In this document: piece by piece, positions 1 to 21,309 of the stretch
Layout: each line of letters begins with the position of its first letter
Position numbering within the stretch: position 1 is the stretch's first letter
DNA from: Candidatus Poribacteria bacterium
Lineage (GTDB): Bacteria; Poribacteria; WGA-4E; WGA-3G
NCBI GenBank assembly: GCA_963665235.2
Contig: CAXXLX010000002.1
Coordinates: 256,001 to 320,000 of the forward strand
Reading direction: 5' to 3'
Length of the DNA stretch: 64,000 nucleotides
Position numbers and translations under genes: made by a program
Notes under the pieces: generated by a model
What the model saw: the letters and a program-made list of their open reading frames with translations, nothing else
What the model was told of the DNA's origin: nothing
Database searches by the model: none

Positions 1-29
1 AATGCTCAGCAGCGAGGAAGTAACGACAA

Positions 30-1493
30 GTTTCAATTCCCTTCAAACGGGAAAGCACATGTGCACTGCTGCAAAATAAGGAGTCAATAAAATGACACGT
101 AAAGTTTCAATTCCCTTCAAACGGGAAAGCACATGTGCACGAAACGATCTCACGCCCGAGGAATCACTAAAGGCTTTAGAGTTTCAATTCCCTTCAAACG
201 GGAAAGCACATGTGCACGGTCGGTTCCGCGGCTGCGTTTTTCCTTTACAGGAAGTGTTTCAATTCCCTTCAAACGGGAAAGCACATGTGCACGAGAAGGC
301 AACGGTTGCCGGACTAAAATCATATCTCCGAGAAGTTTCAATTCCCTTCAAACGGGAAAGCACATGTGCACCTATTGGCTTTCGCTTTCATGGCTTTCGC
401 AGCTCCCAGTTTCAATTCCCTTCAAACGGGAAAGCACATGTGCACGAAAATTCTTATAGACTGCTCGTCCTATGATTATGATGTTTCAATTCCCTTCAAA
501 CGGGAAAGCACATGTGCACAAGGGTATTGGATCTCCGCAACGTTGCTAATGAGAGTTTCAATTCCCTTCAAACGGGAAAGCACATGTGCACGCACGAAGC
601 ACGGAATAATTTCCTCTACGACATGGAGCTCTGTTTCAATTCCCTTCAAACGGGAAAGCACATGTGCACAACAGTTGGTCTATTCGTTGCCTGATTCGTG
701 GGTTAGTTTCAATTCCCTTCAAACGGGAAAGCACATGTGCACAAACAGGCTTCTCAAAAGTTAGAACAAGAAAAGGAGCTGTTTCAATTCCCTTCAAACG
801 GGAAAGCACATGTGCACTAGGAGGAGAAGGAGGTGGAGTATAATGGCGTTAATAGCGTTTCAATTCCCTTCAAACGGGAAAGCACATGTGCACCGACAAC
901 ATGAAGCAGATGGTTGCTTTTTACCGTGACATGTTTCAATTCCCTTCAAACGGGAAAGCACATGTGCACGCTCCTGTATGGACCAGGAAACTGAATCGTT
1001 CTTTCTTGTTTCAATTCCCTTCAAACGGGAAAGCACATGTGCACCAATTAACTAAACTAATGGGGTCTCTGTACCCCGAGGAGTTTCAATTCCCTTCAAA
1101 CGGGAAAGCACATGTGCACGAGGACTTATGTCCAAGTCCAAAACTTATTTCGGCTTGTTTCAATTCCCTTCAAACGGGAAAGCACATGTGCACTGCATCA
1201 GATCCAATGGTTGGTGAACGTGCAAGTAGATGTTTCAATTCCCTTCAAACGGGAAAGCACATGTGCACCAAGACCCTCAAAAAAGGTTTGGAGGCAAAAG
1301 AAGTTTCAATTCCCTTCAAACGGGAAAGCACATGTGCACGTAACTATAAACTTCATAACGCATATGGCTTTAAGGAGGTTAAGTTTCAATTCCCTTCAAA
1401 CGGGAAAGCACATGTGCACACATTACGAGCGTATGGAGTATACCGACAGGTATATTGTTTCAATTCCCTTCAAACGGGAAAGCACATGTGCAC
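30..1493 (-). CRISPR. CRISPR array, 20 identical 37-bp repeats and 19 complete spacers (34-43 bp); continues beyond the window start
   Basis: + strand repeat GTTTCAATTCCCTTCAAACGGGAAAGCACATGTGCAC at 30,104,181,256,335,409,483,555,633,706,781,857,933,1008,1083,1157,1232,1303,1383,1457. On the minus strand it reads GTGCACATGTGCTTTCCCGTTTGAAGGGAATTGAAAC, ending in the ATTGAAAC crRNA handle. Leader and promoter lie to the right. Confidence 0.99.
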
Positions 1494-1760
1494 TTACCCT
1501 ATTTTCGACCCACTCCACGCTTGACTCCGGAACCCCTGATTCAAACGCGAACTGCGCGGGGCTTTTTTTTACTCAAAAATTGGAGCGAAAATCGCCTAAA
1601 CCCTTATGAATACTGACTCAAACGCGATTTTTACCGAAAAACACGAGAGAATTCAGTCACCGTATAGGTTTATGGGCTATTTCATCAAGCGATTCAGCTC
1701 AAGGTCGAATCGCGTTTGTTTTACGTTATTAAGTATACCACAGATTTGCATAAATGTCAA
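1494..1760 (-). promoter_or_regulatory. CRISPR leader with sigma70 promoter
   Basis: Minus strand TTGACA (1760-1755), 17 nt, TATACT (1737-1732), pointing into the array; AT-rich non-coding DNA between the cas1 3' end and the first repeat. Confidence 0.85.
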
Positions 1761-1819
1761 ATTTTTTTTGCGATTTTTTTCAAAAAAACGAAAATTTCGT
1801 AATTTTAGCGGATAAATGC

Positions 1820-2012
1820 GGAGGGGGGTGGAAGAGGGGAAGGGGGAAGGATGGAAGAGGTCATAACATGCAGTCAGATGGATAGCAATCGTGCGCGTGG
1901 GTGGAAGGATGGAAGAGGGGAAAGGAGGCAAGATGGAAAGATGAAAGAAGCATCCAAAACGACATCGCAGCCGGAGATGCAAAAAAGAAGGGGGAAGGAT
2001 GGAAGAGGAGAG
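1820..2012. repeat. Degenerate purine-rich GGAAG(G/A)N(T/G) microsatellite
   Basis: Recurrent GGAAGGAT/GGAAGAGG units; same family at 28837-28937 and 37947-37990. Confidence 0.65.
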
Positions 2013-2062
2013 GTGGGGGACAGATGTCCCCCACGTAGCGGGTCTAAAGTTTCACTAAATCT

Positions 2063-3049: not shown

Positions 3050-3082
3050 TTTATGCCTCCTATGGCGCGATTTTTGATATTA

Positions 3083-3508
3083 TACCATTTTTATTAATTA
3101 TTCTATCATTACCGGTTGTTAGAAATGAAACGGAGAACGGAAGACACAAACTATAAGTTTATGCTACTACAAAGACGCACAAACTGGAAGTTTATGCTAC
3201 TACAAAGACGCACAAACTGGAAGTTTATGCTACTACAAAGACGCACAAACTGGAAGTTTATGCTACTACAAAGACGCACAAACTATAAGTTTATGCTACT
3301 ACAAAGACGCACAAACTGGAAGTTTATGCTACTACAAAGACGCACAAACTGGAAGTTTATGCTACTACAAAGACGCACAAACTATAAGTTTATGCTACTA
3401 CAAAGACGCACAAACTGGAAGTTTATGCTACTACAAAGACGCACAAACTGGAAGTTTATGCTACTACAAAGACGCACAAACTGGAAGTTTATGCTACTAC
3501 AAAGACGC
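3083..3508 (+). mobile_element. MITE family A copy with 11 x 33-bp tandem REP-like units; right end replaced by a MITE-B copy
   Basis: Begins TACCATTTTTATTAATTATTCTATCATTACCGGTTGTTAGAAATGAAACGGAGAACGGAAGAC, as at 29500, 31467, 58061 and (reverse) 61534. Unit ACAAACT(GG/AT)AAGTTTATGCTACTACAAAGACGC from 3146 to 3508. Confidence 0.85.
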
Positions 3509-3610
3509 AAATTTAACAGGACCATCGTAGGGGCGAGGTCGCCTCGCCCGCTAGGTCTGCCTCTAACTCCCATTAGCATAAGGGTTTATCAAAGCACTGC
3601 GTCCATCCTG
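3506..3610 (-). mobile_element. MITE family B copy (reverse) containing a GTAG-GGGCGAGG/CCTCGCCC REP hairpin
   Basis: Reverse complement resembles 63658-63771 (CAGGA...GATAAACCCTTATGCTAATGGGA.TTAGAGG...AAATTTGCGT). Confidence 0.7.
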
Positions 3611-3714
3611 ATTATAGTAGAGCCTGTAATTATTTGGCACACACGGCGGGATCCGCACGGGCTGGGTGACCCAGCCCCTACGAGTGTGTCGTGTGGGATC
3701 CCGGCCGAGTGCCA

Positions 3715-5151
3715 TTAAGCCTTTGTTTTCTGTGTGTCCCGTTTTTTGAAACGGCCGCCAAGCTGCGTAGCAATATTTTTCCCACGCTGGGCGGCATGTT
3801 GCACGGGCCGCGCGACTTGTGCTGCACCCCGTTTTAAGGCGTGTTGTACCTGGTTCTGCAAGATTTTCGCTTGCGAGTCGGGGACAGGTTGGTAACAACC
3901 ATCCTTGTCGAAGACGTGTCCGAGGAATTCTACGCTGTCATCGAAACGTGCGATTTGCGTCTTTTTAGGGTTCAATCCTAACTTGAGTGTCGCCAGCCGT
4001 TTTTGTGTTTGCTGTAGTGCATGTCGTGCGCGGCGTTCATTTCTGGTTAGGATGAGCAGGTCGTCTGCGTATCGCACAAGCCGTATACCTGCCCGCGTCA
4101 TCGCCTTGTCGAAGGGGTGCAGGTAGATGTTGGCTAACAAGGGTGAAAGCGGTGAACCCTGTATAATGCCGATTTTGCGTGGGCGACTCAGACGCTCCTT
4201 GACGATACCGCCCACAGTAGGTGCGGCAAGTGTTGCTACGACAAGCGGTGCAGCGAAGAGTAGGTGTTTTGCCGTGAGCCCCATCCATATCCGTTTTGAA
4301 TTTGCAAGGAGTAGTAATACCCCGTCTCGTCCTAAGTTTATTAATGCCTCCTTATTTGCATGAGACCAGAGTCCGTTATCTTTTACACGTTCCAGTTCGT
4401 CAATTTCCCAGGAATCTTCGGGCGGTATGGGTTGCATATCGCCGTATTCATCGGCATAATAGACGTTTTCAGGTGGTGTGCTAAGTCCTGAGCCGCGTTG
4501 CAGGATTTGGCTCATGACCCGTTCGACCCCCGCGCCTAAGCAGTGGGCGGTGTTTTCAATATGGGTGCTCCATGTCGGAAGCTTGGGCGGTTGTAAGATG
4601 CCTCCCATATCCAGCCACATCTGAATGAGGCGTAAGATTGCTGGCTCTTTCAGTGATGCCCGCAGAAAACGCATGAGAATTTGTGTGTCCATTCTGTCAA
4701 AGAAGTTCTCAATGTCCGCGTGAACGACCCATTCGTATCCCTCCGCTCGGATGGCGTTTACCTGGGCAACTGCATGGGGTACGCCGCGATTGGGACGGTA
4801 TGCGAAGCTGCACTCCAGGAATTTTGCCTCGTAAATCGGGGTGATGAGGTCGCAAACGGCACGTTGAACAATCCGATCTTTTAATGTCAGCACAGCGAGT
4901 TCGCGTGGGGTGCCGTTTGACTTCTTAATGATGAACTTCCGAAGTGGAAGCGGGTAATACCGTTCTTCAGCCAGCTCACGCGAGAGTTGACGGAGATGTT
5001 TCGCAAGGTTCGCCTCAAACTGTTGAATGGTAACGCCATCGCTACCGGGCCCTCCTTTGTTGCTTCGCACTTTTCGCCACGCGGCATGTAGGGTTTCGGG
5101 TTGACAGAGTTGTGTTGTGAGTGAATTATTTGGTGATGTGTAATCAAACAT
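3715..5151 (-). CDS. CRISPR-associated stand-alone reverse transcriptase (group II intron-like RT core) with a large internal insertion
   Basis: AWRKVRSNKGGPGSDG (RT0), KKSNG-RELAV-DRIVQRA, SFAYRPNRG, VHADIENFFD, QGSPLSPLLANIYL, RYADD, VEFLG. No maturase or endonuclease domain; lies between cas2 and cas1. Confidence 0.93.
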   Translation of the reverse strand: MFDYTSPNNSLTTQLCQPETLHAAWRKVRSNKGGPGSDGVTIQQFEANLAKHLRQLSRELAEERYYPLPLRKFIIKKSNGTPRELAVLTLKDRIVQRAVCDLITPIYEAKFLECSFAYRPNRGVPHAVAQVNAIRAEGYEWVVHADIENFFDRMDTQILMRFLRASLKEPAILRLIQMWLDMGGILQPPKLPTWSTHIENTAHCLGAGVERVMSQILQRGSGLSTPPENVYYADEYGDMQPIPPEDSWEIDELERVKDNGLWSHANKEALINLGRDGVLLLLANSKRIWMGLTAKHLLFAAPLVVATLAAPTVGGIVKERLSRPRKIGIIQGSPLSPLLANIYLHPFDKAMTRAGIRLVRYADDLLILTRNERRARHALQQTQKRLATLKLGLNPKKTQIARFDDSVEFLGHVFDKDGCYQPVPDSQAKILQNQVQHALKRGAAQVARPVQHAAQRGKNIATQLGGRFKKRDTQKTKA

Positions 5152-5265
5152 TTAGAATTCTCCTTTTAGGTGGGTTAAACGATTTGTAGCACAAACCTTT
5201 AGTTTGCGTCTTTTGATGCACAAACTAAATGAAGTTTAAATAACGTGATTTTGAAAAGAAGTTTC

Positions 5266-5430
5266 TTTAGTCCCGTAGGGACGATATCTTTATAGAAGCA
5301 GACGTTCCCCCCCCCCATTCTTAGTCCCATAGGGACGATATCTTTATAGAAGCAGACGTTTCCGCCCCAACTCTTAGTCCCAGTATTCGGGCAAGCAGCC
5401 CGCTCTTTAAGGACGATATCTTTATAGGGG
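5266..5430. repeat. Three tandem copies of the TTAGTCCC-N3-GGGACGATAT-TTTATAGAAGC hairpin repeat
   Basis: Copies near 5266, 5320 and (degenerate) 5373; family also at 29225-29300, 60072-60145 and, reversed, 38100-38175 and 45440-45520. Confidence 0.7.
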
Positions 5431-5557
5431 TTAGTGCAAACCGACATTTATTATCAAGCTCACGTTATAATTACTTGGACACTTTTACAATATTGGAAAC
5501 TATCAGCAGCAAAGTCGTGCTCGGAAGATTGTTCTTACGGAAGAAAATCGTGTTGAA

Positions 5558-5678
5558 ACCGATTGTATAGAGTCTGCAAGCAGTGAAAAGGATAGTAAAA
5601 TTTTTCAGATTTTACCGATCAACCGATTGTATAGAGTCTGCAAGCAATGAAAAGGATAGTAAAATTTTTCAGATTTTT
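5558..5678. repeat. ~57-bp direct duplication upstream of the RT gene
   Basis: AACCGATTGTATAGAGTCTGCAAGCA(G/A)TGAAAAGGATAGTAAAATTTTTCAGATTTT occurs twice (about 5558 and 5621). Confidence 0.85.
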
Positions 5679-5830
5679 TTTGAGGAGGGGGGATATATAG
5701 TAGACTTTAGAATTAATCGGACATTATGTTCGGACACAAGCATTCGGTGTTGATCGGATGCCTATGCTGTAGCACAAACTGGAAGTATGTGGCCGCATCC
5801 GCACAAACTGGAAGTATGTGCTACAATCTG

Positions 5831-7252
5831 CTACGGTGTGCTGAGCCCTGCATCAATTATCTGCAGCAATAACCGCTTACGGGTATGTTGTTCTCGGAGG
5901 TCTGCGAAATAAACACGCCACTGCTCTTCTTGACCAAGGTGCTGATAGAGTGCCCTTAATTCTATTAAATATGCCGAAACTTTCTCGTAAGCTTCACGTT
6001 TTCGGAAAAGCGCGGTCTGTTCAATAAGACTTTGATAGAGCAAAATGGCGGTATCGGGATAGTGTTGACCAAGAAGTGTGAGCAGCCGTTCGGTGAAATC
6101 TGGGATACGTTTGACAATTGGGCCCTGCAAAAGGGACGCGTATTCGGCAACGGATAGGGGGAATTCTTCAACTGCTTTCCATGCTGCATCGTCGCGCTGC
6201 TGTGTGAACAGCGCGTGTATCAACCGATACCCCTCCTTTTCACGTAGGGCAAGCTGGAGGTAATCTTCAGTTCGCTCATCGCGAAAATATAGGGCAAGTA
6301 AAAGTTGAACGTGTGCCTGTCGCTCGGGGCTTTCATCGAGACGTTGTTCAATTGTTGTGTGTAAATCTGATGGATTTTGCATTGCACAGAGCTGTTCAAG
6401 GTGGTGTGTGAGGATAGGTGTGAATACCGGTGCTGCTTCAAAACTGAGTGACAGCAGCAGGCGGCAGTGTTCAGACAAGGTCTCAGGTGTAGCCCCGGTG
6501 TTTTTGAAACCTACTGACATCGGCTCTTGCGTGTTGAGGACAATGCGCGTGAACTGCTTTGTGCATTTTTTAACAAATCGGGGCAATTCATTCCGCTGGA
6601 GCGTGTCAGGATAATGCACAATTGATTGGTGTATGAGAGCATGGAGGAGGGCGAGCGCGAATTCCGTTTCGCCTACCTGTGCAAGTGATTCGGCATGCAT
6701 GAGGAGCTCTTCAAGTTGAGCTAACACCTGTTGAAGTTGATGTTGTTCCAGAAAGCTGTCTCCAAAAATGGTGTTGAGCTGTTCTCGGTAAGCCGTAACG
6801 AGTGGAATCGGGTCAGTTTGAGGGGGTGTATCCGGAATATCTGTCCATCCCTGCACTACACGTGCCAATGCTGGCCTTCGCTTGAGCATCTCCATAATGA
6901 TGTGCAAAAGCTGTTCCTTCGGTTTTTTCGCAAGCGTAGCAAGCAGGGTGTCGACAGAACAGAGCACCTCCGGCGCGTGAATGTAGGTCAACAGCAGTGC
7001 GACGATATGCTTACAATCTCCTTCACCGCCGTAAGGACATGAACAGGACGCGGCGGCAATCCCTGTGGGTATCAATTCCACAGACACCTTATACGGTTTC
7101 GGATATGTCCCGCGGCATGTTGCTGACAACGTATAGCCGTGGAGTACCGGGTTGCCAATTGCGCCATCGTGGAAGTATTCCAGGCCGCGTGTGAAACTCC
7201 GTTCTGTGCAGCGGTGTTTTATCTGAGCGTAGGTAAGGTGAGGACTTTGCAT
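5831..7252 (-). CDS. SWIM zinc-finger domain protein with a helical C-terminal region
   Basis: SFTRGLEYF...YKVSV...CSCPYGGEGDCKHIVALLL (CxC...CxH). Likely ATG at 7252 lies 1 nt after the cas2 stop. Confidence 0.85.
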   Translation of the reverse strand: MQSPHLTYAQIKHRCTERSFTRGLEYFHDGAIGNPVLHGYTLSATCRGTYPKPYKVSVELIPTGIAAASCSCPYGGEGDCKHIVALLLTYIHAPEVLCSVDTLLATLAKKPKEQLLHIIMEMLKRRPALARVVQGWTDIPDTPPQTDPIPLVTAYREQLNTIFGDSFLEQHQLQQVLAQLEELLMHAESLAQVGETEFALALLHALIHQSIVHYPDTLQRNELPRFVKKCTKQFTRIVLNTQEPMSVGFKNTGATPETLSEHCRLLLSLSFEAAPVFTPILTHHLEQLCAMQNPSDLHTTIEQRLDESPERQAHVQLLLALYFRDERTEDYLQLALREKEGYRLIHALFTQQRDDAAWKAVEEFPLSVAEYASLLQGPIVKRIPDFTERLLTLLGQHYPDTAILLYQSLIEQTALFRKREAYEKVSAYLIELRALYQHLGQEEQWRVYFADLREQHTRKRLLLQIIDAGLSTP

Positions 7253-7253
7253 A

Positions 7254-7529
7254 TCAAACCACGATTGTCTTGGGCTCTGATGTGACATCCCCCACAGCAG
7301 GCACTTCGACCCGTCCTACACAAGCATTACAGAGTGCATAGTAGCGAACTGAATCCTTATCAGGGTCTATGATGTTCACAACGGCGCGTTTCATTTGATC
7401 AAATTGGGAATGGGTGAGATGCGCTTCAAAGACGCTGTACTGGACGCGGGTGCCGAACCCTTTGAGTGTTTTGGCGAGTTGGGTGCGCCGCTGGTCGTCC
7501 GGAATGTCGTAAGAGATTACATAGAACAC
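7254..7529 (-). CDS. cas2: CRISPR-associated endoribonuclease Cas2
   Basis: VISYDIPDDQRR...GFGTRVQYSVFE...DSVRYY. Probable GTG start at 7529. Confidence 0.96.
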   Translation of the reverse strand: MFYVISYDIPDDQRRTQLAKTLKGFGTRVQYSVFEAHLTHSQFDQMKRAVVNIIDPDKDSVRYYALCNACVGRVEVPAVGDVTSEPKTIVV

Positions 7530-7610
7530 CGAATTTATCCTCCGTAGTAGCACAAACTTCCTAGTTTATGGCATGTAGCACAAGCTTCCTAGTTTGTGAC
7601 ATAAGGAGAC

Positions 7611-8579
7611 CTAAGGAAACACCCCGACGATGTGGTACTGTCCATATCCGAATGCTGTATGATGCCCGATATGTAGATATTTGCCGAGAACGATTAGCGG
7701 AAGGAAGGGTTTTATGTCCCCCTCAAAACGAATCTTGCCTCTGAATCCACTCATCGGAACTGATGTCTCCTGCCGATAAGAATATCTATCTCGCGGTAAC
7801 CACTGCAAACCGGAGGTATGCCTGACACCGCTGGCTTCCTTGATTAGGGCGGGTGCGTCTACGTCCAAATCCTCGCCGCAGTGACATAAACTCAAGAAAC
7901 GGATACGCCGGAGCAGGTTGCGGATGAGATGTTCAAACGTCAGATTGCTTGTCCAGCGTCCGTTGACCTTTATGCTGGTGGGGGTGAGAAAATCAAGTTC
8001 AAGTTCATCTGTAATGTGAGGTGCAACTCGTCCCACGTCATCAAGTCCGAGCAGGAGTCCATCGTCTGTCAGCATCTGATCCGTTGCGGTGTAGATTGTG
8101 TGACCCGGCTCTTCATCGGACGCGGGTAGGCTTTCGACTGTTTCCAGTAAACACCGCCCGCGCTGGTCTTTAAGTCCGATTCGTTGGATGCCCATCCTGT
8201 GGAAGGTAAATACCATCCATGGGAGTACCGCTATCGCCTCTCCGATGAGGATCAGATTACACTTGAAGGTGTCGCCTGGAGCGTATCGGACTTTGCCGGT
8301 ACGGGGTGGTTCAAGTACGAACGGATGTGGTGCGTACGTCTGTCCTCGGAGGACAGGACTGTCCTGCGGCACTGGCGTTTCAAAGCATCTGGAGTAGACG
8401 CATTGGTCCGGAAAGTGACACTGGTTTTCGCACTGCTGTTCGGTGCCGATGCAGACGGTGTGCCGGAGGACGTATCCAAATCTGCCTCTGAAGATGTTGC
8501 CTTTGTAGGCTGGCATCTTCAGGGGCTCTTGGACGGTGTATGTGAAGCGGTAACGCGCGAAGCGGAAGTTTTTGAGCAT
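7611..8579 (-). CDS. cas6: crRNA-processing endoribonuclease Cas6 (Cys-cluster type)
   Basis: GNIFRGRFG, Cys cluster, F-TPT, C-terminal G-loop HIGHHTAFGYGQY. Probable start MLKNFRF at 8579. Confidence 0.92.
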   Translation of the reverse strand: MLKNFRFARYRFTYTVQEPLKMPAYKGNIFRGRFGYVLRHTVCIGTEQQCENQCHFPDQCVYSRCFETPVPQDSPVLRGQTYAPHPFVLEPPRTGKVRYAPGDTFKCNLILIGEAIAVLPWMVFTFHRMGIQRIGLKDQRGRCLLETVESLPASDEEPGHTIYTATDQMLTDDGLLLGLDDVGRVAPHITDELELDFLTPTSIKVNGRWTSNLTFEHLIRNLLRRIRFLSLCHCGEDLDVDAPALIKEASGVRHTSGLQWLPRDRYSYRQETSVPMSGFRGKIRFEGDIKPFLPLIVLGKYLHIGHHTAFGYGQYHIVGVFP

Positions 8580-8595
8580 GGGGGTTGTTGGTTCA

Positions 8596-9336
8596 TTACG
8601 CATCAGCGTTAGTCTTGGTTGCTTCAGCATCCGCATCCGAGTTAGGACATGTTGTTTCCGCGGGTTCCGACTCTGCACAAAGTAGGTCAGTAGACGGTAT
8701 TAAGGGCGTTTTGTCTGATTTGCGTACGAGTGCCACAAGGGCAGCATCAACAATACCTGCTAAATGGTATTTGGGGTCATAGTCTACTACTTGTTTGAGT
8801 TCTAGCCGTAGGGGCAAGTTCTTTTCTGCCAATTTTACATCCTTCAACGGTGGTATCCAGATTTCTGCTCCTCGGTCTTCTCGCAATTTTACCCAGCGTG
8901 TCTGTGTGCATTTAACGTCGGTACCCCACAAGGCGTGGTATTCTGTTAGAGCCTCTCTCTTTTTCCGAGACTTTTCTGGATTGTCCTGATCGTTTTCATT
9001 ACAACCGATCCAAACGTGCTTTTCGTCTTCGACATCAAATTCCAGCAGGCGTGCATAATGTTTGCCATCCCAATCTCGCCAGACGTGCCATTCGCCTTTC
9101 TCACCGAAAAGACGGAGATCGCTCACCAGTTCCCAATCCGGTTTCCATTTTGATTCTTTTTCCGATTCTGATTCTTTATATGGGGGCCAGCAGATGTCGT
9201 TTGGGGATACTACGCCAAAGCCGATAAACCCTGGTTCTTGCACCAAAACCCATGCTAAATCTTTTTCGGTAACATTGGACAGATGGCCACAAACCCATGA
9301 TTCATTGAGTTCTTCTATATGCGTTTTATTCGGCAT
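8596..9336 (-). CDS. csx19: Type III-D subunit Csx19
   Basis: LRLFGEKGEWHVW and YHALWGT motifs; follows the Cas7-Cas7 gene. Probable start MPNKTH at 9336. Confidence 0.8.
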   Translation of the reverse strand: MPNKTHIEELNESWVCGHLSNVTEKDLAWVLVQEPGFIGFGVVSPNDICWPPYKESESEKESKWKPDWELVSDLRLFGEKGEWHVWRDWDGKHYARLLEFDVEDEKHVWIGCNENDQDNPEKSRKKREALTEYHALWGTDVKCTQTRWVKLREDRGAEIWIPPLKDVKLAEKNLPLRLELKQVVDYDPKYHLAGIVDAALVALVRKSDKTPLIPSTDLLCAESEPAETTCPNSDADAEATKTNADA

Positions 9337-10840: not shown

Positions 10841-10875
10841 TACATTGTTTCCTATCTTTTTCTTTATTCTTTAGC

Positions 10876-13290: not shown

Positions 13291-14933
13291 TCTTTATTTT
13301 CCTCTCTGTCATCTACATTACCGGTTTCTGGTTGGACTTCTATCCAGAAGTCGAGCACTTCGAGCGGATCGAAGTAGGGCGTGGTCGGGGCATCACCACC
13401 TGTCCATCCGGTGGCCCTTGCATCGCCCCCTACACCGGATGATGGCAACTCCACATTACGCCATTGTGCCCCCTTAATGAAATGTTCACTTGCCACTGGA
13501 CCTTGCGTTAGAGCGTGTAAGAGACCTTTAGCACGATTGCGGGGCCACCCCGACGATTGGAAACCCTTTAAAATTGAGATAAAATTGTTCCAATTGTCCG
13601 AACCTATTGACACCTCATAGGGGCGTTGATGCAGTACTTGTCCTTCAAGGCTGCGATACTGCACTTCTCTTAGAGCTGTAATGGATCGGGTAGCACCTTC
13701 TTGAATAATCTGAAAGTCTAACCAACTACCTTTTGAATCTCCTTCTTCACGACGGTATCGCTTGGCCAGCGCACAAAGTTCATCAGCAAAACCGTAAGCC
13801 CGGGCAAATGGGAACTTCGTTGGCACGATCGTGATGCCCGCGCACGCATCAACAGATTCTTTCTTGCCACAGACTTGAATGTTGCCAGAAGAAAACGCTT
13901 TTAGATAGAACGCGGCAAGATGGAGCCCAACACGACCATCGCAAACAAATGTCAAATCATCACCACCGTACACAATTGGACGCAGCGGGAATACCTCCGG
14001 CGGATTGTGAAGTGCCTCCAGCGGCAAAGTAGCCTTGAAGTGCAGTAATGTTGCCTCTAAGGCCCTATGAGACAGGTCTGTCGTAGAAGCCGAAAACGCG
14101 CGCAGATTATGGAGGAATTCGGCATCTTCTTGAGATTCTTTGTCCACTACTCGGTTGAGCCGCTCTCCCATTCCGTTACCATCTGCATGGACTATAGCAA
14201 TGTGGGATTCACCTTCGCTACCTCCTAATTCCTCTCCAAGTTCAATGGCGAAACGTTGTCCATCTGGCAAGTCATTCCCTGCTGAAAGAACCTTGGAAAA
14301 TTCATTTGCAATAGAGTCCTGAGCAGGCCCGGGAGCCTGTTGAGAGCCAACCTGATTTCGCTTACTCACTGCAGCTAGCGAGATCCACTGTTGGTCTTCT
14401 TTGCTAAGCATACTTGCCGGAAGTTCGGTAGTGGTACAAGAACGAACAATAGGCAAACTATAGAGAGTTGAACCAAACGGAAGTGCTTCCTCACAAGCAG
14501 ACAGATCGTCCAATGCCGTACGATACGCCTCGGCAAATGTGGCATTTACATCTCCATATCCAACGGCGATACGAAGTGCCGGAGCCTTATATAGCAGCTG
14601 GCAGCTCCACGCCGAGACTGCCCGGCGCGCAGTATCTCGGCTACTGCATAACAAGGCAGCGTTTCCACCACCGACATAGAGGAGATTGACATCTGAAGAT
14701 GCTGACAGTGCTTCCGAAAGCGCGGGAATAGACTTGGGTATGCTCTGTTGGTACTTATCCCAGCAGTCTGTGTTAACAGCAAGTCCTGTCCCCTGGATAG
14801 ATTCAATCATACCTTCTTTGAGCCAATATTTTGCCAAATAGGATGCCCCAATATTCTCCTTCAAATGGTTGCTCTGAAAGACATATTTCTGAAGACTAAC
14901 AGTACCGAAAACCAAAATGCACTGAATTGACAT
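13287..14933 (-). CDS. cas10: Cas10 lacking an HD domain, with an intact palm GGDD motif
   Basis: LQKYVFQSNHLKENIGAS, YVGGGNA, IAIVHADGNGMG, PIVYGGDDLTF, KFPFARAY. At 548 aa it has no N-terminal HD domain. Confidence 0.95.
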   Translation of the reverse strand: MSIQCILVFGTVSLQKYVFQSNHLKENIGASYLAKYWLKEGMIESIQGTGLAVNTDCWDKYQQSIPKSIPALSEALSASSDVNLLYVGGGNAALLCSSRDTARRAVSAWSCQLLYKAPALRIAVGYGDVNATFAEAYRTALDDLSACEEALPFGSTLYSLPIVRSCTTTELPASMLSKEDQQWISLAAVSKRNQVGSQQAPGPAQDSIANEFSKVLSAGNDLPDGQRFAIELGEELGGSEGESHIAIVHADGNGMGERLNRVVDKESQEDAEFLHNLRAFSASTTDLSHRALEATLLHFKATLPLEALHNPPEVFPLRPIVYGGDDLTFVCDGRVGLHLAAFYLKAFSSGNIQVCGKKESVDACAGITIVPTKFPFARAYGFADELCALAKRYRREEGDSKGSWLDFQIIQEGATRSITALREVQYRSLEGQVLHQRPYEVSIGSDNWNNFISILKGFQSSGWPRNRAKGLLHALTQGPVASEHFIKGAQWRNVELPSSGVGGDARATGWTGGDAPTTPYFDPLEVLDFWIEVQPETGNVDDREENKE

Positions 14934-14951
14934 CGTATATTCCTCACTTAC

Positions 14952-16043
14952 TTATTTCCAATGCAGATCTCTACGGAGGTATTTATAGAAATGATCTGAT
15001 AGAGACTGCCACTTATGACGTCCCCAGATTTGCAGAGGTAGGTCCGAGCTACCTGTCTCGTCTTGCAATTCTGCTTCAATGTATGGCTGGTCCTGTTGAC
15101 GAACACTACACAATACAATTGCACGTGCTTCATCACCACCAAGTTGTCTGGATCGAAGAATGGCCTCCATACCTTTCGCCTTAACCTCGTCAGCTCCGCC
15201 AGAAACAGTGCATGAAACTACGACAATTTGGTAACCTAACACTGCCACTACGTCCAATTCAAAAGGACGAACCCTTGAAGTAGTTGCATTGGATCGCCGA
15301 ACGTATACGTTATGGAAAAGTTCATAGTTACATCTTTGTGAATTCTGCCTACAAATTTTCTCCAATGCTGCTTTCATAGCTGCATATGCACCGTACTCAA
15401 GCAGGCGAAAATCGTGGATGAATCCATTAAGTGCTGCATTGCCGGCATCTATTTGTTCATCTGTGAGCTGACTGGGCTCCGGACAATCTTCTGTTACCTC
15501 ACGACCAACTTCCCGCTTCCAGTACGTGTGTCGGAAGGGGCCAAGCTCGAATCCATTCAGATCAGCAATGTTCGTAAGACTGGGATTAACATCTATACGG
15601 GTGTCCGTTACAAGCTTGTTGCTGTCCCAATCTACGATAGTCGGACCGTTGGGCGCGCGCGCATCTAAGTAGGAAGTTTTCATATCAATATTACTCGGCA
15701 ACGCAAAATCTTCAATAGCAGCAACAGTTTCAACACCCATAACCTTAGTTCCCCCCGTGTAATGAACGTGGATTTTCTCATCTGTCGGTAAACTTGGAAT
15801 AAGTCTCGTATTGATTTTATCGCGAACCTTTCCTGGATCACCTGCTGATGTTTCGTAAGTTTGGACATCAGGGATGTGTCCACAGTGTTTTTGTAGTCGC
15901 TCCTTTTCGTCACTTGTACCTGCGGTATGGACAAGTCTGGTTGTAACAGAGGCATCCAGTTTATCCTTCAAATGATACCAAGCGACCCAAACAGGGAGCG
16001 GGTTGGTCCCAACTGTCATTATCAGTTGTGTTGCCATAACCAT
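14952..16043 (-). CDS. CARF-domain PD-(D/E)xK nuclease, Can2/Card1-like cyclic-oligoadenylate effector
   Basis: CARF motifs MTVGTNPLP and HYTGGTKVM; C-terminal FELDVVAVLGYQIVVVSCT...EAILRSRQLGGDEAR. Confidence 0.85.
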   Translation of the reverse strand: MVMATQLIMTVGTNPLPVWVAWYHLKDKLDASVTTRLVHTAGTSDEKERLQKHCGHIPDVQTYETSAGDPGKVRDKINTRLIPSLPTDEKIHVHYTGGTKVMGVETVAAIEDFALPSNIDMKTSYLDARAPNGPTIVDWDSNKLVTDTRIDVNPSLTNIADLNGFELGPFRHTYWKREVGREVTEDCPEPSQLTDEQIDAGNAALNGFIHDFRLLEYGAYAAMKAALEKICRQNSQRCNYELFHNVYVRRSNATTSRVRPFELDVVAVLGYQIVVVSCTVSGGADEVKAKGMEAILRSRQLGGDEARAIVLCSVRQQDQPYIEAELQDETGSSDLPLQIWGRHKWQSLSDHFYKYLRRDLHWK

Positions 16044-16081
16044 AATCTCCATCGTATGCATGAATAGCGAACATTTAGGCA

Positions 16082-18499
16082 CTAAAAGTCATAGGGCTCA
16101 TAGGCTAATCCGCTTTCATCAACCCTCGGAAGTGCCTCTCGCCAATTACGTTCGTTCTCTGTAAACCATTGGAAGTTCTCACCTTCTGGAGTCGGTTCAC
16201 GCTTCAGGCGTGGATAATGAATCGGCGAGTCATCCACGGGGCCTTCTAGGATTTGTAAGAAATCCGAGATGAAATAGAGATCGCCAAAACTTGGAGAGGT
16301 ATTATACGCTGCCTCCATACTTGCCTGAAACGCCTGAATACATTGGTTTCGCTGATTGTCATCCAACGTAGCGGGCGGATCGGCATCAAAGGTAGCGTAG
16401 TACTTTTTCCAATCTTCGCTAGTACCGAGTGGCAAAACCCCGTCGTCAACCTCCAGTCTCACACTCCCGAAACCCAGCGGCTTGCCGTATCCGAGTTTGA
16501 AGTAATGTTTTTCAGGAAGCGTTAGCAGCCAAAGTAGTGCACCAATCTCTTCAGGTTGTAGATTTTGAACGTACAGAGATGCCTTAAACTCGGTGCCGGG
16601 CTTAATCCAACTTGTAATCGAACGGTTCTGTGGATCTGTTTGTGGTTTGCCATCTTTATCATCAGGCCGGCGGTATTCTTGATATCGACCTTTACGCTTA
16701 ATCTTCGTTCTGTCCTCAACGGATGGCTGCCAGTAGCACAGTGTTTGTTTGCTCTCCTCCAACTCGGCTTCTAGCCCTGCATGGTGCCAATATTGCTTAC
16801 GGCCCCGTAACCTCTTACTCTGACTTGCGTCATAACCCGCGTCCTGCTTCCTGACACCGTCTTGTGGATCACCTTGATCGTCAGCAACATAGAAACGGCC
16901 CTGCGCCGGTTTTGGTTGTCCTAAAATTGTCAGTGGCAGTTTGCCATTAAATTTCTTAACAATTTCTGGTCGTGCACCATCCTCACAGACAACCCGGAGA
17001 CGGCTCTTGTAACCTGCATCATCTCCTTGTTCCTGAGGCACCCACCCAAACAGACGATCTGCTGGAGACAGCTTATTTCTCTTACTCGCCGGCCGGAGCG
17101 ATGGATCAAGCAGATCTTTCGGGCTGTCGACGTACAATTCGCGGGATATCAGGACAGGAAAAAAATCTTCAATTTCTGTAATCTTTCCGCGCTTGAACTT
17201 ACAGCGGGCATATACCATATCACCCGCTTTTAGTTCAAGCGCGTCATGTACATCTCTACCCCAGCGGTCCTTGTGTTTACCGTCCTCATACAGATGTGGA
17301 GACCAAGCAGTTTGACCAGGGTCTCTGCCAAGTTTTTTCCAAGGTTCATCCTGTGCCCCCTTTCGATTGAAAATATCGTTTTCGGAGTGTGCATCCCGAT
17401 AACTTTGGATACGCATGCGCCAGTCCTCTTTGAGCTCGTCGGTCACAGGCAAAGTGGTTTTCATGGGATTGAAGAAAATACGTTCATCATGTTTGTTGTC
17501 CATGTTTTCATTAGTAATCAAAATATGTCCTTCAACAACGTTCCCTCCAGGCAACGGGTTATTAGGATATCTAGATTTTGGCCAAACTTTTGTCACCTTC
17601 AAATATTGGTAACTCCGGTGCCGGCGGCGATCAATTTCTACCCAAACTTCATCGCGAGTGCGCGGCCCATATCCTCCGATACACACTGAATTCTCCTGCG
17701 AATTTCTATGGTAACATGTTAGCATTGCAGCGTACATAGGACCATTGGGCCCTGTAGGTGTCGGCGTACTAGTTCCTGTATATAAACGCGCTACTAAATT
17801 CCCACCGCCAGCATCTTCAATAACCGCCGGAATGAGATTCAAAGCTTCTTGCGGCCTCATACGATAGGCTAATCGATCTCCGTTACTAAAACACGCGTAG
17901 CGCGAATTCGTCGCTATTTCATAGGCACTACGCAACATACCGCGCAAAGACGATTCCGGTAGAAAGTCAAGCACGTCATAAATTTGATGTTCCTTTGGCT
18001 CTCGTTCCGTGCCATCATTCTTAAGTAACACTAAGGGCGTAACCGTGGTTATCTTGATTGGGATATGTCCTGTCCACAAACCATCTTTGAGAGACGCATG
18101 ATCAAGAGGAGGATTATGTTCCAACGGATCGAAATCACCAGCAAATCCATTTGACGGCCGCGGAGGCGTGGGGACAAAGGTATATGGATTATGGAAATAG
18201 TCGTGTTCATCGTCAGTTGATAGCGTCCCCTCTGAAGGTGGTTGATGTCCAGTAGGTTGATGTTCTTTAATCCTCAATGGTCGTCCCATCATCTCTTGAT
18301 TATCCAATGCTTCTATCGCCCGTTCGCCTTCCTCTCGGTTTTCCATTACAACCGTCCCGGACCCATTAGATTTACCTTGATGGGGTCCACTTTGGTGAAG
18401 GTTAATTGTGACAGTAGTTACCGTTCCATACTGCTCAAAGTGTCTTTTCAAGTCAGTATCGGTAGCACGGTATGGCAAATTATCGACATAGATTTTCAT
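16082..18499 (-). CDS. Type III-D Cas7-insertion RAMP with an N-terminal RRM domain
   Basis: aa 1-80 IYVDNL...FEQYGTV...AIEALDNQEMMGRPLRI (RRM); then FHNPYTFVP, LPESSLRGMLRSAYE, ADRLFGWV, LRGRKQYWH, KLGYGKPLGFGSV. Confidence 0.9.
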   Translation of the reverse strand: MKIYVDNLPYRATDTDLKRHFEQYGTVTTVTINLHQSGPHQGKSNGSGTVVMENREEGERAIEALDNQEMMGRPLRIKEHQPTGHQPPSEGTLSTDDEHDYFHNPYTFVPTPPRPSNGFAGDFDPLEHNPPLDHASLKDGLWTGHIPIKITTVTPLVLLKNDGTEREPKEHQIYDVLDFLPESSLRGMLRSAYEIATNSRYACFSNGDRLAYRMRPQEALNLIPAVIEDAGGGNLVARLYTGTSTPTPTGPNGPMYAAMLTCYHRNSQENSVCIGGYGPRTRDEVWVEIDRRRHRSYQYLKVTKVWPKSRYPNNPLPGGNVVEGHILITNENMDNKHDERIFFNPMKTTLPVTDELKEDWRMRIQSYRDAHSENDIFNRKGAQDEPWKKLGRDPGQTAWSPHLYEDGKHKDRWGRDVHDALELKAGDMVYARCKFKRGKITEIEDFFPVLISRELYVDSPKDLLDPSLRPASKRNKLSPADRLFGWVPQEQGDDAGYKSRLRVVCEDGARPEIVKKFNGKLPLTILGQPKPAQGRFYVADDQGDPQDGVRKQDAGYDASQSKRLRGRKQYWHHAGLEAELEESKQTLCYWQPSVEDRTKIKRKGRYQEYRRPDDKDGKPQTDPQNRSITSWIKPGTEFKASLYVQNLQPEEIGALLWLLTLPEKHYFKLGYGKPLGFGSVRLEVDDGVLPLGTSEDWKKYYATFDADPPATLDDNQRNQCIQAFQASMEAAYNTSPSFGDLYFISDFLQILEGPVDDSPIHYPRLKREPTPEGENFQWFTENERNWREALPRVDESGLAYEPYDF

Positions 18500-18557
18500 C
18501 TCGTTCCTCTATTGAATGTTGAACTTGAAGACTTCCTTCTTTAAGATATTAGATTTT

Positions 18558-19427
18558 CTAAACATGCCTAACTGCGGCACACAAACTATCGTTCAAATTT
18601 GTATGGTCGATGCTGGTAGTCACAAATCCCCAGGTCAATCTCGATAAGGACGCTCGGATGGACCTATCCTGTATGTTGCCTGTTACGCCGCCGCGTCGCA
18701 ACATATGAATTATAAAACGCCTTACAATGCCAAACGCGAAGTGTCCTGGAAGTAAATCAATGAAACGATGTTTCTTTAAAAACCCGTTAACCAAGACTTC
18801 CGCAGTAGCAATGCCTCCAACGCTAACGTGCACAGCCGCGGTACAGGACCAGTGATCAATTCTGTCAGCGTGGAAATCTATTTTTCCCTTCGTTGCAAAA
18901 AATCTGTCTGGCTCCCTGAGAAAACTCCGAAGATGTGGTGCTTCGTTGTGCCGTGCTATATCTAATACGAGTAGGTCCTTAAAGTTAGCTTCTACATTTT
19001 TGAGGAAGAGCCAGAATTCATTTGCTAGCGAAGGGAAATGGGGTCCGGGAACCCCATTCATACGGTCAAGACAAAACTTCTCTATCGGTTTTGCTTCAAA
19101 AAGATAGTTTTCAACAGAATGCCGATGAAGTAAAACAACTTGTGGGCCTAGACTCGGGGGAAACGGCAAAATGTCATAATCCCCATCAAGAATAACAACG
19201 TAACGGCGTTTTTTTACTTTGAGCGCATTTACTAGGGCCATGCATTTTGGTTTTCCACCCGCTGATTTTATTACACAATTAAACCGGTTAAGGAATGGAT
19301 CCCTTGTACAGATTTCGTCGTAGAAAGTCCAATCAGTTTTCCCCTCAACATAGATAACTACATCCTTTTTAGGATGAAAGTGAGGGGTTGCTATTAACCC
19401 AGGGACGGTTCGTGAAAACGTACTCAT
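18558..19427 (-). CDS. DUF4435 TOPRIM-like nuclease, PARIS AriB-like
   Basis: IYVEGKTD..FY, GGK, ILDGDYD and HSVENYL motifs; ATGA overlap with the upstream ATPase. Confidence 0.8.
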   Translation of the reverse strand: MSTFSRTVPGLIATPHFHPKKDVVIYVEGKTDWTFYDEICTRDPFLNRFNCVIKSAGGKPKCMALVNALKVKKRRYVVILDGDYDILPFPPSLGPQVVLLHRHSVENYLFEAKPIEKFCLDRMNGVPGPHFPSLANEFWLFLKNVEANFKDLLVLDIARHNEAPHLRSFLREPDRFFATKGKIDFHADRIDHWSCTAAVHVSVGGIATAEVLVNGFLKKHRFIDLLPGHFAFGIVRRFIIHMLRRGGVTGNIQDRSIRASLSRLTWGFVTTSIDHTNLNDSLCAAVRHV

Positions 19428-20737
19428 TGATTCTCCACCTCCAAATCTATAGCATCATCAGCTTCTAAATTTATAATATTATCCTCGAATTTTCCAACAA
19501 TATCGGGAGAATGGGTTGCGACAATTAGCTGTATTTGCCCACCAAGTGCTACCAGAGACTCTAGAAGTGTTTTTTGCCAAATGAGGTGGAGCGACAACTC
19601 CGGTTCATCTGCGATATAGACCACTGGTTTATCTGATTGAAGTAGGGCTTCGGTAAGTAAAATCAGAATCTGTTTCTCACCCGAGGAGAGGCGGTGCACC
19701 TCTAGGTCAGAGAGTGAAGAAGATCCAATCTTTATCTTTAACTTTCCACTTTCATCTACCTTAATGGATTTGTTACGCAAAAATGAATTGGCAAATTTCT
19801 CATAAAGACGCAATTGAGCCAAAATATCTCCTCTATCTTCTTCAAGTTTTCTTGAATGCTCAACCATGTTTTTGGTTCGACTGATCAGTGGAAAAACAAG
19901 TGTATCTTTGAATTTCAAATCTGCATCTTCAATGTTTCTAATTCGTTCGACTGATTCCTTTGCAGTATCAAAATGTTGATTAATTCTGCTCCGCATCTGT
20001 TCGTCTAGAAGATCGGCAGCACCAAAAGCCCTGATTAATTGTTCTTTCTCAACTTCTGTTGGTAAAGAACGAATTGACTCCAGAATCAAATCAGGTTGAT
20101 CTTGGTCTTTGCTGTAAAGGATCACTGATAGAACTTGACGTGAAAACTCTCTGTACCGTTCAGAAAGGCGTGCACTTAAGCCAGAGCGATACTCAGAAAG
20201 CTTTTCCAATAATCCAGAAAGTCGTGCGTCTACCGATTCCAAAGAATTTGTCCGAGATCTTTCTTCATCACCCTCTGGCACAGTTAAACGACGACTTACG
20301 GGAAGCCAAAGGAGAGGAACTAAGTTGGTCAATCTATTAGAAAATTCCTCTTCATCACTATACATCGATCTTCTGGTGCTTCTACCTATTTCATCCCTAA
20401 ACACTGTTTTTCCAGTAACGATGTTTCGCTCAAGCGACGAATTTTTCTCCCCAGTGAGTTCCAATTTTAAGGACCTGTTATCCTTCTCAACAGTAATAGT
20501 ATTGGGTCCATCATCTTCGCCTTCAAATTTACTTATCCCAATTTTGGCTTGCTCAAAATCAACTTTTCGGAGACTTTCCAAATCTACCGATAAGATCGAA
20601 TGGAGAAGGTTCAAAATAGTGGTTTTACCAGAGGCATTCGGACCTATCAGTATATTTACGTCGTCATAAAAAGTTAGGTGAATGTCTCTATAGTCCCACA
20701 GTTTGGTTATTTCAAAGGACTCAATACGGTACATCAT
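19424..20737 (-). CDS. ABC-type (AAA_15/AAA_21) ATPase, PARIS AriA-like
   Basis: Walker A GPNASGKT, signature LSSGEKQ, Walker B YIADEPE-SLH, ATHSP. Confidence 0.85.
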   Translation of the reverse strand: MMYRIESFEITKLWDYRDIHLTFYDDVNILIGPNASGKTTILNLLHSILSVDLESLRKVDFEQAKIGISKFEGEDDGPNTITVEKDNRSLKLELTGEKNSSLERNIVTGKTVFRDEIGRSTRRSMYSDEEEFSNRLTNLVPLLWLPVSRRLTVPEGDEERSRTNSLESVDARLSGLLEKLSEYRSGLSARLSERYREFSRQVLSVILYSKDQDQPDLILESIRSLPTEVEKEQLIRAFGAADLLDEQMRSRINQHFDTAKESVERIRNIEDADLKFKDTLVFPLISRTKNMVEHSRKLEEDRGDILAQLRLYEKFANSFLRNKSIKVDESGKLKIKIGSSSLSDLEVHRLSSGEKQILILLTEALLQSDKPVVYIADEPELSLHLIWQKTLLESLVALGGQIQLIVATHSPDIVGKFEDNIINLEADDAIDLEVENQ

Positions 20738-20959
20738 TTGTCTCCATCTGCTTGACGATAAGATCGTTAAGGATATGCAAAAAGCACGCTGACAAGCGTT
20801 AAAACGAATTTGTATGTCAACAACTTTTTTGCGATGTGTTCGACGAAAAGCGTTAATTTTCCGTTCGCATACTTTAAAGTATACGATATTTTACGGAAAA
20901 TGTCGAATTAACCCGATAATCCGGCTATTTTCCGCATCGTCTTCGTCAAATACCAATTC

Positions 20960-20989
20960 ATTATACCGTAAAATGGATCTGTATGTCAA
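20960..20989 (-). promoter_or_regulatory. Consensus sigma70 promoter ahead of the PARIS-cas operon
   Basis: Minus strand TTGACA (20989-20984), 18 nt, TATAAT (20965-20960). Confidence 0.75.
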
Positions 20990-21090
20990 CACTTTTTTCG
21001 CAAAAAACACCGAATTTTTACCGAATTCGGTTAATTTGCTTAGATTTTAGCATTTTCTTAAAAATTTGTCAACAATTTTTTTCAAAAAAA

Positions 21091-21297: not shown

Positions 21298-21309
21298 TTT
21301 TTCCCCTAC

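Follow-up and report, generated by a model that had tools for sequence, protein, structure and literature searches.

The stretch of DNA analysed here, 64,000 nucleotides (nt) of contig CAXXLX010000002.1 from a Candidatus Poribacteria bacterium (assembly GCA_963665235.2, positions 256,001 to 320,000; hereafter the window), carries at its left end a genuine RNA-targeting type III CRISPR-Cas locus of a sponge-symbiont Poribacteria lineage. We consider it likely that the row of genes leading to its CRISPR array consists of two separate defence units: a PARIS-like pair, and a type III-Dv-like CRISPR-Cas system with proposed lineage-specific additions to its effector head and its adaptation module. 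Three additions to the III-Dv scheme stand out, for which we infer the mechanisms proposed below: a swappable head, either an RRM or a cold-shock domain (CSD), at the N-terminus of the Cas7-insertion subunit; an adaptation-linked SWIM zinc-finger gene; and a stand-alone reverse transcriptase (RT) with an insert. They can be joined in a tentative reading, which falls somewhat short of probable. In the III-Dv systems of Poribacteria, a plug-in head, located at that end of the effector complex from which pairing with the target starts, taken from the cell's own RNA chaperones (an RRM-type RNA-binding protein, Rbp, or a CSD) and repeatedly exchanged by recombination, would capture or unfold transcripts for the crRNA seed; the SWIM protein, translationally coupled to Cas2, would be an undescribed adaptation subunit linking the insert-bearing RT to Cas1-Cas2 for the acquisition of RNA-derived spacers.

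A type III-Dv-like core with a fixed gene order

The row comprises 13 open reading frames (ORFs), all on the minus strand between 2063 and 20737, with the array 3' of them on that strand (Table 1). ORF calls and a repeat search bear out this layout as first described, and scans with the Pfam, NCBIfam and PADLOC profiles give each of the 13 genes the identity that it had received in the initial annotation (III-Dv subunit set, RRM fusion, Can2-like nuclease, SWIM gene and RT insert). For all four effector subunits that have a match among solved structures, the best one is the Synechocystis III-Dv complex 8s9t: chain E for Cas7-insertion (1e-117, over residues 100-796 only), chain A for Cas7-Cas5-Cas11, chain C for Cas10 (aligned from residue 8) and chain D for Cas7-2x. 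In the family scan Cas10 gave palm-domain matches only and none to an HD family, in keeping with the III-Dv Cas10, which is reported to retain GGDD and to lack HD (PMC11026444). TIGR02581 matched Cas7-2x in four stretches, and the Cas7-Cas5 fusion follows the Synechocystis Cas7-Cas5-Cas11 colinearly through residues 1-688, its Cas7 and Cas5 (Csx10) parts being recognised. Two results fit the assignment poorly: the last ~115 residues of the fusion, where Cas11 is expected, do not align with the Synechocystis protein, and Csx19 has neither pairwise similarity to Synechocystis Csx19 nor a sequence match in the PDB. Judged by its profile and structure matches, the core is nevertheless best classified as a type III-Dv-like system.

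To place the locus we searched 176 genomes of the phylum. Twelve other genomes match the body of Cas7-insertion, and the 20 kb around it were compared in 11 of them (G133, with a 6.5-kb contig, was left out); homologues with a named source are all labelled 'Candidatus Poribacteria bacterium'. The 11 related loci have the same order, cas7-insertion, can2-like, cas10, cas7-cas5-cas11, cas7-2x, csx19 and, on contigs that reach far enough, cas6. Since this order is shared by all 11, whereas Synechocystis and Nostoc have cas7-insertion and the CARF gene at the end, the leading position of these two genes is a fixed feature of the lineage, and the unusual row noted earlier is upheld. The CRISPR part of the arrangement is therefore not a one-off (the effector row is found in 11/11 loci and the Cas2-SWIM-RT-Cas1 order in 18 of the 27 genomes assessed below); the PARIS pair, found in 0/11, is in this respect a different matter.

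The array repeat is 37 nt long, with 20 copies in the window (30-66 to 1457-1493) and 24 more past its left edge. The window's own genome (G000) holds 44 perfect copies, all within this one array (G000:C2:254257-257493), and the 43 spacers, of 34-43 nt, are all different. On the minus strand the repeat has ATTGAAAC as its ending, which marks the 3' end of such repeats, so that the array is co-oriented with the genes. When the 43 spacers were compared with the window's own genome only, neither a self-target nor a protospacer was found. The sole match longer than 20 nt is between two adjacent spacers left of the window (G000:C2:254882-254995), which have 25 nt in common in the same orientation, as if they came from overlapping parts of one target.

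It is very unlikely that the locus is decaying and no longer at work. Dispersed repeats in two intergenic gaps, the degenerate RNP1 motif of the RRM, and the transposases or broken genes that several relatives have in the locus would fit decay, but all 11 cas-related ORFs are intact, the 44 repeats are identical with different spacers between them, and none of the catalytic motifs GGDD, YADD and ExD...K is lost. Taking the identical repeats and intact ORFs as signs of activity, we regard the type III-Dv-like system as complete and probably active.

An exchangeable RRM or cold-shock head on Cas7-insertion

The fusion of an RRM to Cas7-insertion, seen in the initial annotation, is confirmed by a match to RRM_1 over residues 3-76 (54.1 bits, cut-off 20.7), and it is a recurrent one: among the best 120 Cas7-insertion homologues in a large protein collection, 61 carry PF00076 (RRM_1), 51 carry PF00313 (the CSD) and 8 neither, some of the last being truncated gene calls. 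Classing the same 120 with phmmer gave 61 RRM, 51 CSD and 8 unclassed, with one Pfam-CSD protein among the 8. The two heads were then mapped on a tree of the bodies (FastTree only, proteins cut at the FHNPY motif, 115 rows, the 5 rows without the motif being dropped). At least 14 switches between RRM and CSD are needed on this tree, a count that recombination inside the body could inflate; shuffled labels need 36.4 on average, and 0/500 shuffles were as low. The clearest case is a pair of homologues, P0036 with an RRM and P0042 with a CSD: past the FHNPYTFVP motif most of their 40-column windows show 87-100% identity, and before it the two are unrelated. With bodies near-identical and heads unrelated, this pair confirms that switching occurs, and RRM_1 and CSD appear to be exchanged like a cassette at the N-terminus of Cas7-insertion. 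Within the two bodies identity falls to 17-70% in one stretch (alignment columns ~240-520), as against 87-100% elsewhere, which suggests a second mosaic segment.

What the head does has to be judged from the nature of the two domains and of the subunit that carries them. RRM_1 and the CSD are both general binders of single-stranded RNA, and the RRM proteins of cyanobacteria are cold-induced stand-ins for cold-shock proteins. As for the subunit, Cas7-insertion holds the 3' end of the CRISPR RNA (crRNA) and exposes the crRNA seed (PMC11026444). Put together, the simplest reading is that the head would act as a tethered RNA capture or chaperone module, feeding transcripts to the crRNA seed. What counts against it is that the RRM of the window lacks both RNP1 aromatics (NGSGTVVM against KGFGFVEM in most relatives). 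The RNP1 consensus has aromatic residues, so their loss may weaken canonical RNA binding in exactly this locus; the NGSGTVVM type is found in about 7-8 of the 61 RRM forms, a subclade, and the canonical motif in most.

The alternative is a head with no part in target capture. Candidate roles are binding of the crRNA 3' end or of pre-crRNA while the complex assembles, and regulation of the complex; the head might also be a surface rapidly exchanged under the pressure of phage inhibitors. Frequent switching between near-identical bodies would be expected from an arms race too, a mosaic and poorly conserved stretch is present within the body of P0036/P0042 as well, the subunit is the one that holds the crRNA 3' end, and the missing aromatics speak for this alternative as well. 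On the other hand, both of the alternating modules are general single-stranded-RNA binders, and the canonical fused RRMs are still 81-85% identical to the free RRM protein of the window's own genome (58% for the fused RRM of the window), which is more in line with retained RNA binding than with a decoy; and no inhibitor is known. A role other than capture is thus somewhat unlikely in our view, and a capture or chaperone head remains the reading that we prefer.

The N-termini of the Synechocystis and Nostoc proteins gave no match to RRM_1 or CSD, and as a possible relative of the CSD head the cyanobacterial N-terminus was discarded, the profile comparison having aligned the shared FHNPY motif only. 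The N-terminal 112 residues of the Synechocystis protein are reported as uncharacterised and not in the map (PMC11026444). In the literature that was searched we found no description of the RRM/CSD fusion and no link of a cold-shock domain to a type III Cas7, and the words SWIM, RRM and cold shock are all absent from the main text of the 2025 CRISPR classification (PMC12669027). To that extent the suggestion of an undescribed variant is supported for the head; for the SWIM gene it holds only in part, as set out below. Five genomes (G101, G021, G134, G091 and G170; loci L027-L031) have a short Cas7-insertion of about 570-640 amino acids (aa), which retains the RRM head but lacks the counterpart of window residues ~218-455 and with it much of the insertion domain.

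A SWIM gene overlapping or abutting cas2

The SWIM gene starts either at the ATG at 7288, giving a 35-nt overlap with cas2, or at the ATG at 7252, one base past the cas2 stop. In the five relatives that were mapped the cas2/SWIM overlap is 11 nt each time, the SWIM proteins of relatives being 50-61% identical, and the residues of the SWIM motif CxCxnCxH (C82, C84, C92 and H94) are invariant in 12/12 sequences. The AlphaFold2 (AF2) model has a mean predicted local distance difference test (pLDDT) score of 72.5, with a low-confidence SWIM part and a confident alpha-solenoid over the C-terminal 320 residues. A Foldseek search with this model returned nothing at E <= 1e-3, only generic TPR/ARM/PPR solenoids and ZSWIM8 (E 1.1e-3, template-modelling (TM) score 0.15), and a look-up in the ESM Atlas gave generic 'SWIM zinc finger family' clusters only. 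Prediction of a complex of two Cas2 with the SWIM protein scored 0.03 against a mark of 0.32, which weighs neither way.

Searching one genome per species with the SWIM alignment as query returned 80 loci. Among the 24 that are full-length, cas2 lies directly upstream in 23 (the contig of the 24th is too short), and an RT gene followed by cas1 lies downstream in 15. A census of the RT in the 176 genomes gave the converse view: 33 have an RT of the window type (full-length in 31), and in 27 the sequence upstream is long enough for an assessment. Of these 27, 18 show Cas2-SWIM-RT-Cas1, one a rearranged SWIM gene and 8 no SWIM gene, mostly at loci with more distant RTs. From these associations we propose that the SWIM protein is a subunit of the adaptation module, most likely a scaffold or nucleic-acid-binding adaptor that would join the unfused RT to Cas1-Cas2.

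Several observations weigh against this proposal. The SWIM gene is missing from the 8 assessable RT loci just mentioned, and 4 SWIM loci with at least 5 kb of downstream sequence have no RT nearby, so that the tie to the RT is loose. Moreover, the nearest paralogues and the Chloroflexota relatives lie in unrelated neighbourhoods: a shorter paralogue of about 330 aa occurs in 10 Poribacteria loci (L052-L057, L059-L061 and L063), mostly without cas genes, and in about 40 Chloroflexota loci (L072-L113) only the N-terminal ~200 residues are matched, again without cas genes. At one of the former, L052, the surroundings of the paralogue include a TGT-like gene and a DNA methylase. The SWIM gene could accordingly be a passenger of the adaptation module, or serve defence or regulation independently of it, an idea also favoured by the match of its N-terminus to the PADLOC defence-candidate family PDC-S62 and by the want of a specific fold match. 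We nevertheless judge it unlikely, in view of the cas2 gene directly upstream in nearly every full-length locus, of an 11-nt overlap preserved while the proteins have diverged to 50-61% identity, and of the fixed position between cas2 and the RT gene. Nor is the SWIM element, which we continue to regard as an adaptation subunit, wholly undescribed: the legend of Figure 6B in Altae-Tran et al. 2023 (PMC10910872) lists SWIM among new adaptation-module associations.

A stand-alone reverse transcriptase with an insert

The insertion in the RT, noted earlier, is verified by the family-profile matches of the protein, which fall into two blocks (residues ~13-183 and ~322-413) on either side of an insert of ~140 aa (residues ~184-322) between RT motifs 3 and 4. 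The score of TIGR04416 (275 bits) is below its cut-off of 300, and YADD is present. The insert is kept in 7/7 aligned relatives and contains a conserved RxxALxRLGRDG segment with a hydrophobic stretch after it. It is spanned by about 25 of the best 150 representatives at 50% identity, which are 35-46% identical to it, and so defines a wider RT subfamily; the clusters of these insert-bearing relatives are named 'retron-type reverse transcriptase' or 'RNA-directed DNA polymerase' only. The AF2 fold of the RT, from a 7-row alignment, has a mean pLDDT of 32.2. The gene is adjacent to cas1 and not fused to it, a state that has been described (Silas et al. 2017, PMC5513706).

A gene of about 545 aa resembling pyridoxal-phosphate (PLP)-dependent decarboxylases (Pfam Pyridoxal_deC) was met on the opposite strand in three relatives, each time at another place within the adaptation module (L024:2644-4278, L026:15631-17307 and L031:14425-16056). 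The SWIM-RT gaps of about 1.4-2.5 kb at L037, L038, L050 and L064-L066 may hold it too.

The PARIS-like pair is a neighbour

AriA and AriB overlap by 4 nt. The match of AriB to its PADLOC profile, which has 236 positions, is confined to the first ~100. The initial annotation had suggested that the pair, the type III effector, the Can2-like nuclease and the RT adaptation module may be one integrated, co-transcribed, multi-layer abortive-infection system. Such integration would account for the co-orientation of all 13 genes, for the gaps of at most 58 nt, or overlaps, from AriA through the SWIM gene, and for the perfect promoter-like site upstream of AriA. The comparison with relatives points the other way. 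AriA/AriB are found in 0/11 related III-Dv loci, and although homologues of AriB (39-46% identity) occur in 30 of the 176 genomes, in the three that have both such a homologue and a III-Dv locus (G137, G100 and G101) the two are more than 1 Mb apart. In the window the pair separates the CRISPR locus from a conserved thiO/thiS flank. G144 has this flank too (L026 448-1827 against window 22472-21095, 73% identity), and there it runs directly into cas7-insertion with no PARIS between. The G+C content over PARIS is also lower (0.40 versus ~0.47). The G144 flank and the distant AriB homologues support an insertion of PARIS at the boundary, and on this comparative evidence the pair is a neighbour and not a part of the CRISPR system; 'multi-layer' thus describes a co-location in the lineage of the window and not an integrated system.

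One finding runs counter to this separation: in one metatranscriptome contig, which comes from a separate study, AriB-like sequence (~87% identity) continues into the first 23 nt of cas7-insertion, so that a near strain may share the adjacency of PARIS. The RNA evidence comes from contigs of two metatranscriptome libraries of that one study, which may contain DNA; both libraries hold pieces of cas7-insertion at ~96% identity, and one contig spans the cas7-insertion/can2 junction (15967-16683). Other parts, such as cas10 to cas7-2x, had no cover, which carries no weight.

The question of a single operon is related. The consensus promoter reported upstream of the row exists, TTGACA-18-TATAAT at 20989-20960 matching the consensus at 12/12 positions. 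A second site, in the array leader at 1760-1732, is TTGACA-17-TATACT, TG-extended, with 11/12. Promoter-like sites in the region are in no excess (18, against 25.8 +/- 6.3 in shuffles). Promoter-like units following an A-run (AAAAA..TTGACA) were seen at 20780-21090, three to four of them upstream of AriA, and once in the leader, at 1732-1775. The short gaps from AriA to the SWIM gene make co-transcription possible there. Beyond it, the SWIM-RT gap of 679 nt and the RT-cas1 gap of 665 nt are both filled with dispersed hairpin repeats. Their 33-nt hairpin unit (3177-3500 and 5184-5826) belongs to a family that is matched 73 times across the genome of the window, and 10 hairpins of this family score as terminator-like; the repeat was also found at very high contig depth in metagenome runs. 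In relatives these two gaps are much shorter or hold other insertions, the RT-Cas1 gap being only ~15-220 nt. The repeat-filled gaps with terminator-like hairpins, the shorter gaps of relatives and the leader's own promoter-like site argue against the single operon previously assumed, and transcription probably proceeds in several units. Together with the results on PARIS, the separate leader site and the two gaps make one integrated system highly improbable, and two units remain the reading that we favour.

The Can2-like nuclease and other features of the region

The best PDB match of the Can2-like protein is TbrCan2 (8q3y, 2.5e-23), which covers both the CARF and the PD-(D/E)xK domain. The restriction-endonuclease motif of Can2 is E-ExD-SxTTS-K (Jungfer et al. 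2023, PMC10783487); in the window the aligned residues are E275-x-D277, S290-x-T292-x-S294 and K303, and the first Glu is not aligned. The gene likely starts at 16037, giving 361 aa. An N-terminal RRM_1 was seen on the Can2-like nuclease itself in G134 (L029:4343-5851). That such heads are common on Can2 as well was rejected: none of the best 120 Can2 homologues has any Pfam match, which makes the case of G134 look rare. Two relatives have a second CARF gene between csx19 and cas6 (L021:6865-8001 and L025:14081-15220), of the Cas_APE2256 family, as is the partner in Synechocystis.

Homologues of Cas6 align from residue 34, near which its true start probably lies. Neither the 82-aa ORF at 5199-5447 in the SWIM-RT gap (Pfam, NCBIfam and PADLOC scans) nor a low-complexity 101-aa ORF in the leader (Pfam and NCBIfam scans) gave a family match, and a scan of 1-21400 with Rfam returned nothing at E <= 0.1.

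Table 1. Features of the region, in window coordinates
Feature	Position	Strand	Evidence or remark
CRISPR array, 37-nt repeat	1-1493	-	20 repeat copies in window
Leader	1494-2062	-	promoter-like site 1760-1732; G/A-rich short repeats 1826-2017
cas1, stand-alone, 328 aa	2063-3049	-	Pfam Cas_Cas1 8.4e-94; TIGR00287 311 bits, cut-off 71.7
Tandem 33-nt hairpin repeat in RT-cas1 gap; not a system component	3177-3500	none	dispersed genome-wide family
RT, group-II-intron-like, stand-alone, 478 aa, YADD, ~140-aa insert	3715-5151	-	RVT_1 2.3e-35
SWIM-RT gap	5152-5830	none	several short direct and inverted repeats, including the unit of the 33-nt hairpin repeat
SWIM zinc-finger and alpha-solenoid protein	5831-7288	-	Pfam SWIM 28.3 bits, cut-off 19.6; PADLOC PDC-S62 2.2e-14 at N-terminus
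cas2	7254-7553	-	Pfam CRISPR_Cas2 9.9e-25
cas6	7611-8678	-	PADLOC Cas6 2e-90
csx19	8596-9447	-	TIGR03984 63.2 bits, cut-off 35
cas7-2x, two Cas7 domains	9326-10840	-	TIGR02581 122.8 bits, cut-off 108; PADLOC Cas7_IIId 1.3e-114
cas7-cas5(-cas11) fusion, 804 aa	10876-13290	-	PADLOC Cas5_IIId 3.3e-104, residues 6-697
cas10, HD-less, 548 aa, GGDD in VYGGDDLTF	13287-14933	-	PADLOC Cas10d 1.4e-107
Can2-like CARF-PD-(D/E)xK nuclease	14952-16082	-	PADLOC CARF4--CARF_PDDEXK 2.8e-45
cas7-insertion, 805 aa, N-terminal RRM_1 (residues ~1-85 = 18245-18499)	16082-18499	-	TIGR03986 303.9 bits, cut-off 161.35
AriB-like DUF4435/TOPRIM	18558-19427	-	PADLOC AriB 3.7e-11; Pfam DUF4435 35.3 bits, cut-off 27
AriA-like ATPase	19424-20737	-	PADLOC AriA 5.9e-38; Pfam AAA_15/AAA_21
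Intergenic region adjoining thiS-like ORF	20740-21092	-	promoter-like sites 21072-21044, 20989-20960, 20906-20878
Flank: thiS-like small ORF and two DAO-family (thiO-like) oxidoreductase genes	21093-23809		

Proposed mechanism and its implications

By homology to the Synechocystis III-Dv system and to Can2, the transcript of the array would be cut by Cas6, and a single crRNA would be held by one copy each of Cas7-Cas5(-Cas11), Cas7-2x, Csx19, Cas10 and Cas7-insertion. A foreign transcript would start to pair at the crRNA 3' end, held by Cas7-insertion; the RNA would be cut by the Cas7 domains, the GGDD palm of the HD-less Cas10 would make cyclic oligoadenylate, and the latter would switch on the Can2-like CARF nuclease. 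New spacers would be taken up by Cas1-Cas2 and the separate RT, which, to judge by RT-Cas1 systems, would allow capture from RNA. The PARIS pair would work, if at all, on its own. That every one of these steps depends on homology is a reason to hold the scheme with reserve.

The N-terminus of Cas7-insertion is, by the published account, the only part of the solved III-Dv complex that is neither seen nor explained (PMC11026444). The alternation of textbook single-stranded-RNA-binding domains at this place leads to a testable idea, namely that they help a type III complex to find or open its RNA target; if true, this would be a natural example of the modular tuning of an RNA-guided effector, of relevance to RNA-targeting tools. 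The SWIM protein is likewise a candidate for bringing to the integrase an RT that is not fused to Cas1. There is also a reason for caution in annotation: defence genes that stand tightly co-oriented in a single genome turned out here not to form a common system.

Comparison with known systems

The PARIS-like pair consists of the same two adjacent, overlapping genes as PARIS in the PADLOC model (AriA ATPase and AriB DUF4435/TOPRIM), with no conserved link to the CRISPR locus. The Can2-like protein has the same architecture, CARF plus restriction-endonuclease-like domain, as Can2/Card1 (TbrCan2, PDB 8Q3Y), and is about 80 residues shorter than TbrCan2. A Cas7 domain with an insertion is also found in types III-D2 and III-E (Cas7x3, Cas7-11), to which there are weaker matches (9wxh_D and Cas7-11 chains). 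These types fuse more Cas7 domains, whereas the window has neither such fusions nor CorA. Type III-E lacks Cas10. Type III-D2 makes S-adenosylmethionine-AMP (SAM-AMP) for CorA (PMC13294483).

With the RT-Cas1 modules of Marinomonas mediterranea and of the Vibrio vulnificus III-D system, as they are presented in PMC6821258 and PMC11014452, the locus has in common a group-II-intron-like RT beside Cas1 and Cas2 in a type III setting; it differs in that its RT is separate, carries the ~140-aa insert and is preceded by the cas2-coupled SWIM/alpha-solenoid gene.

The closest known system is III-Dv on pSYSA of Synechocystis sp. PCC 6803 (PDB 8S9T-8S9X; Schwartz et al. 2024, PMC11026444), which, as described there, has the same five effector subunits, save that its Cas11 portion finds no aligned counterpart in the window. 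Both also have Cas6, a CARF gene beside cas7-insertion, Cas1/Cas2 and an array, and identity is 25% for Cas7-Cas5-Cas11 and ~39% for Cas7-insertion. The Synechocystis row runs from cas10 to csx19 and cas7-insertion, and in Synechocystis and Nostoc alike cas7-insertion and the CARF gene are last, whereas in the window they come first. The CARF partner is of the Cas_APE2256 family in the two cyanobacteria and Can2-like in the window, and their loci have neither the RT nor the SWIM gene, both of which are present here.

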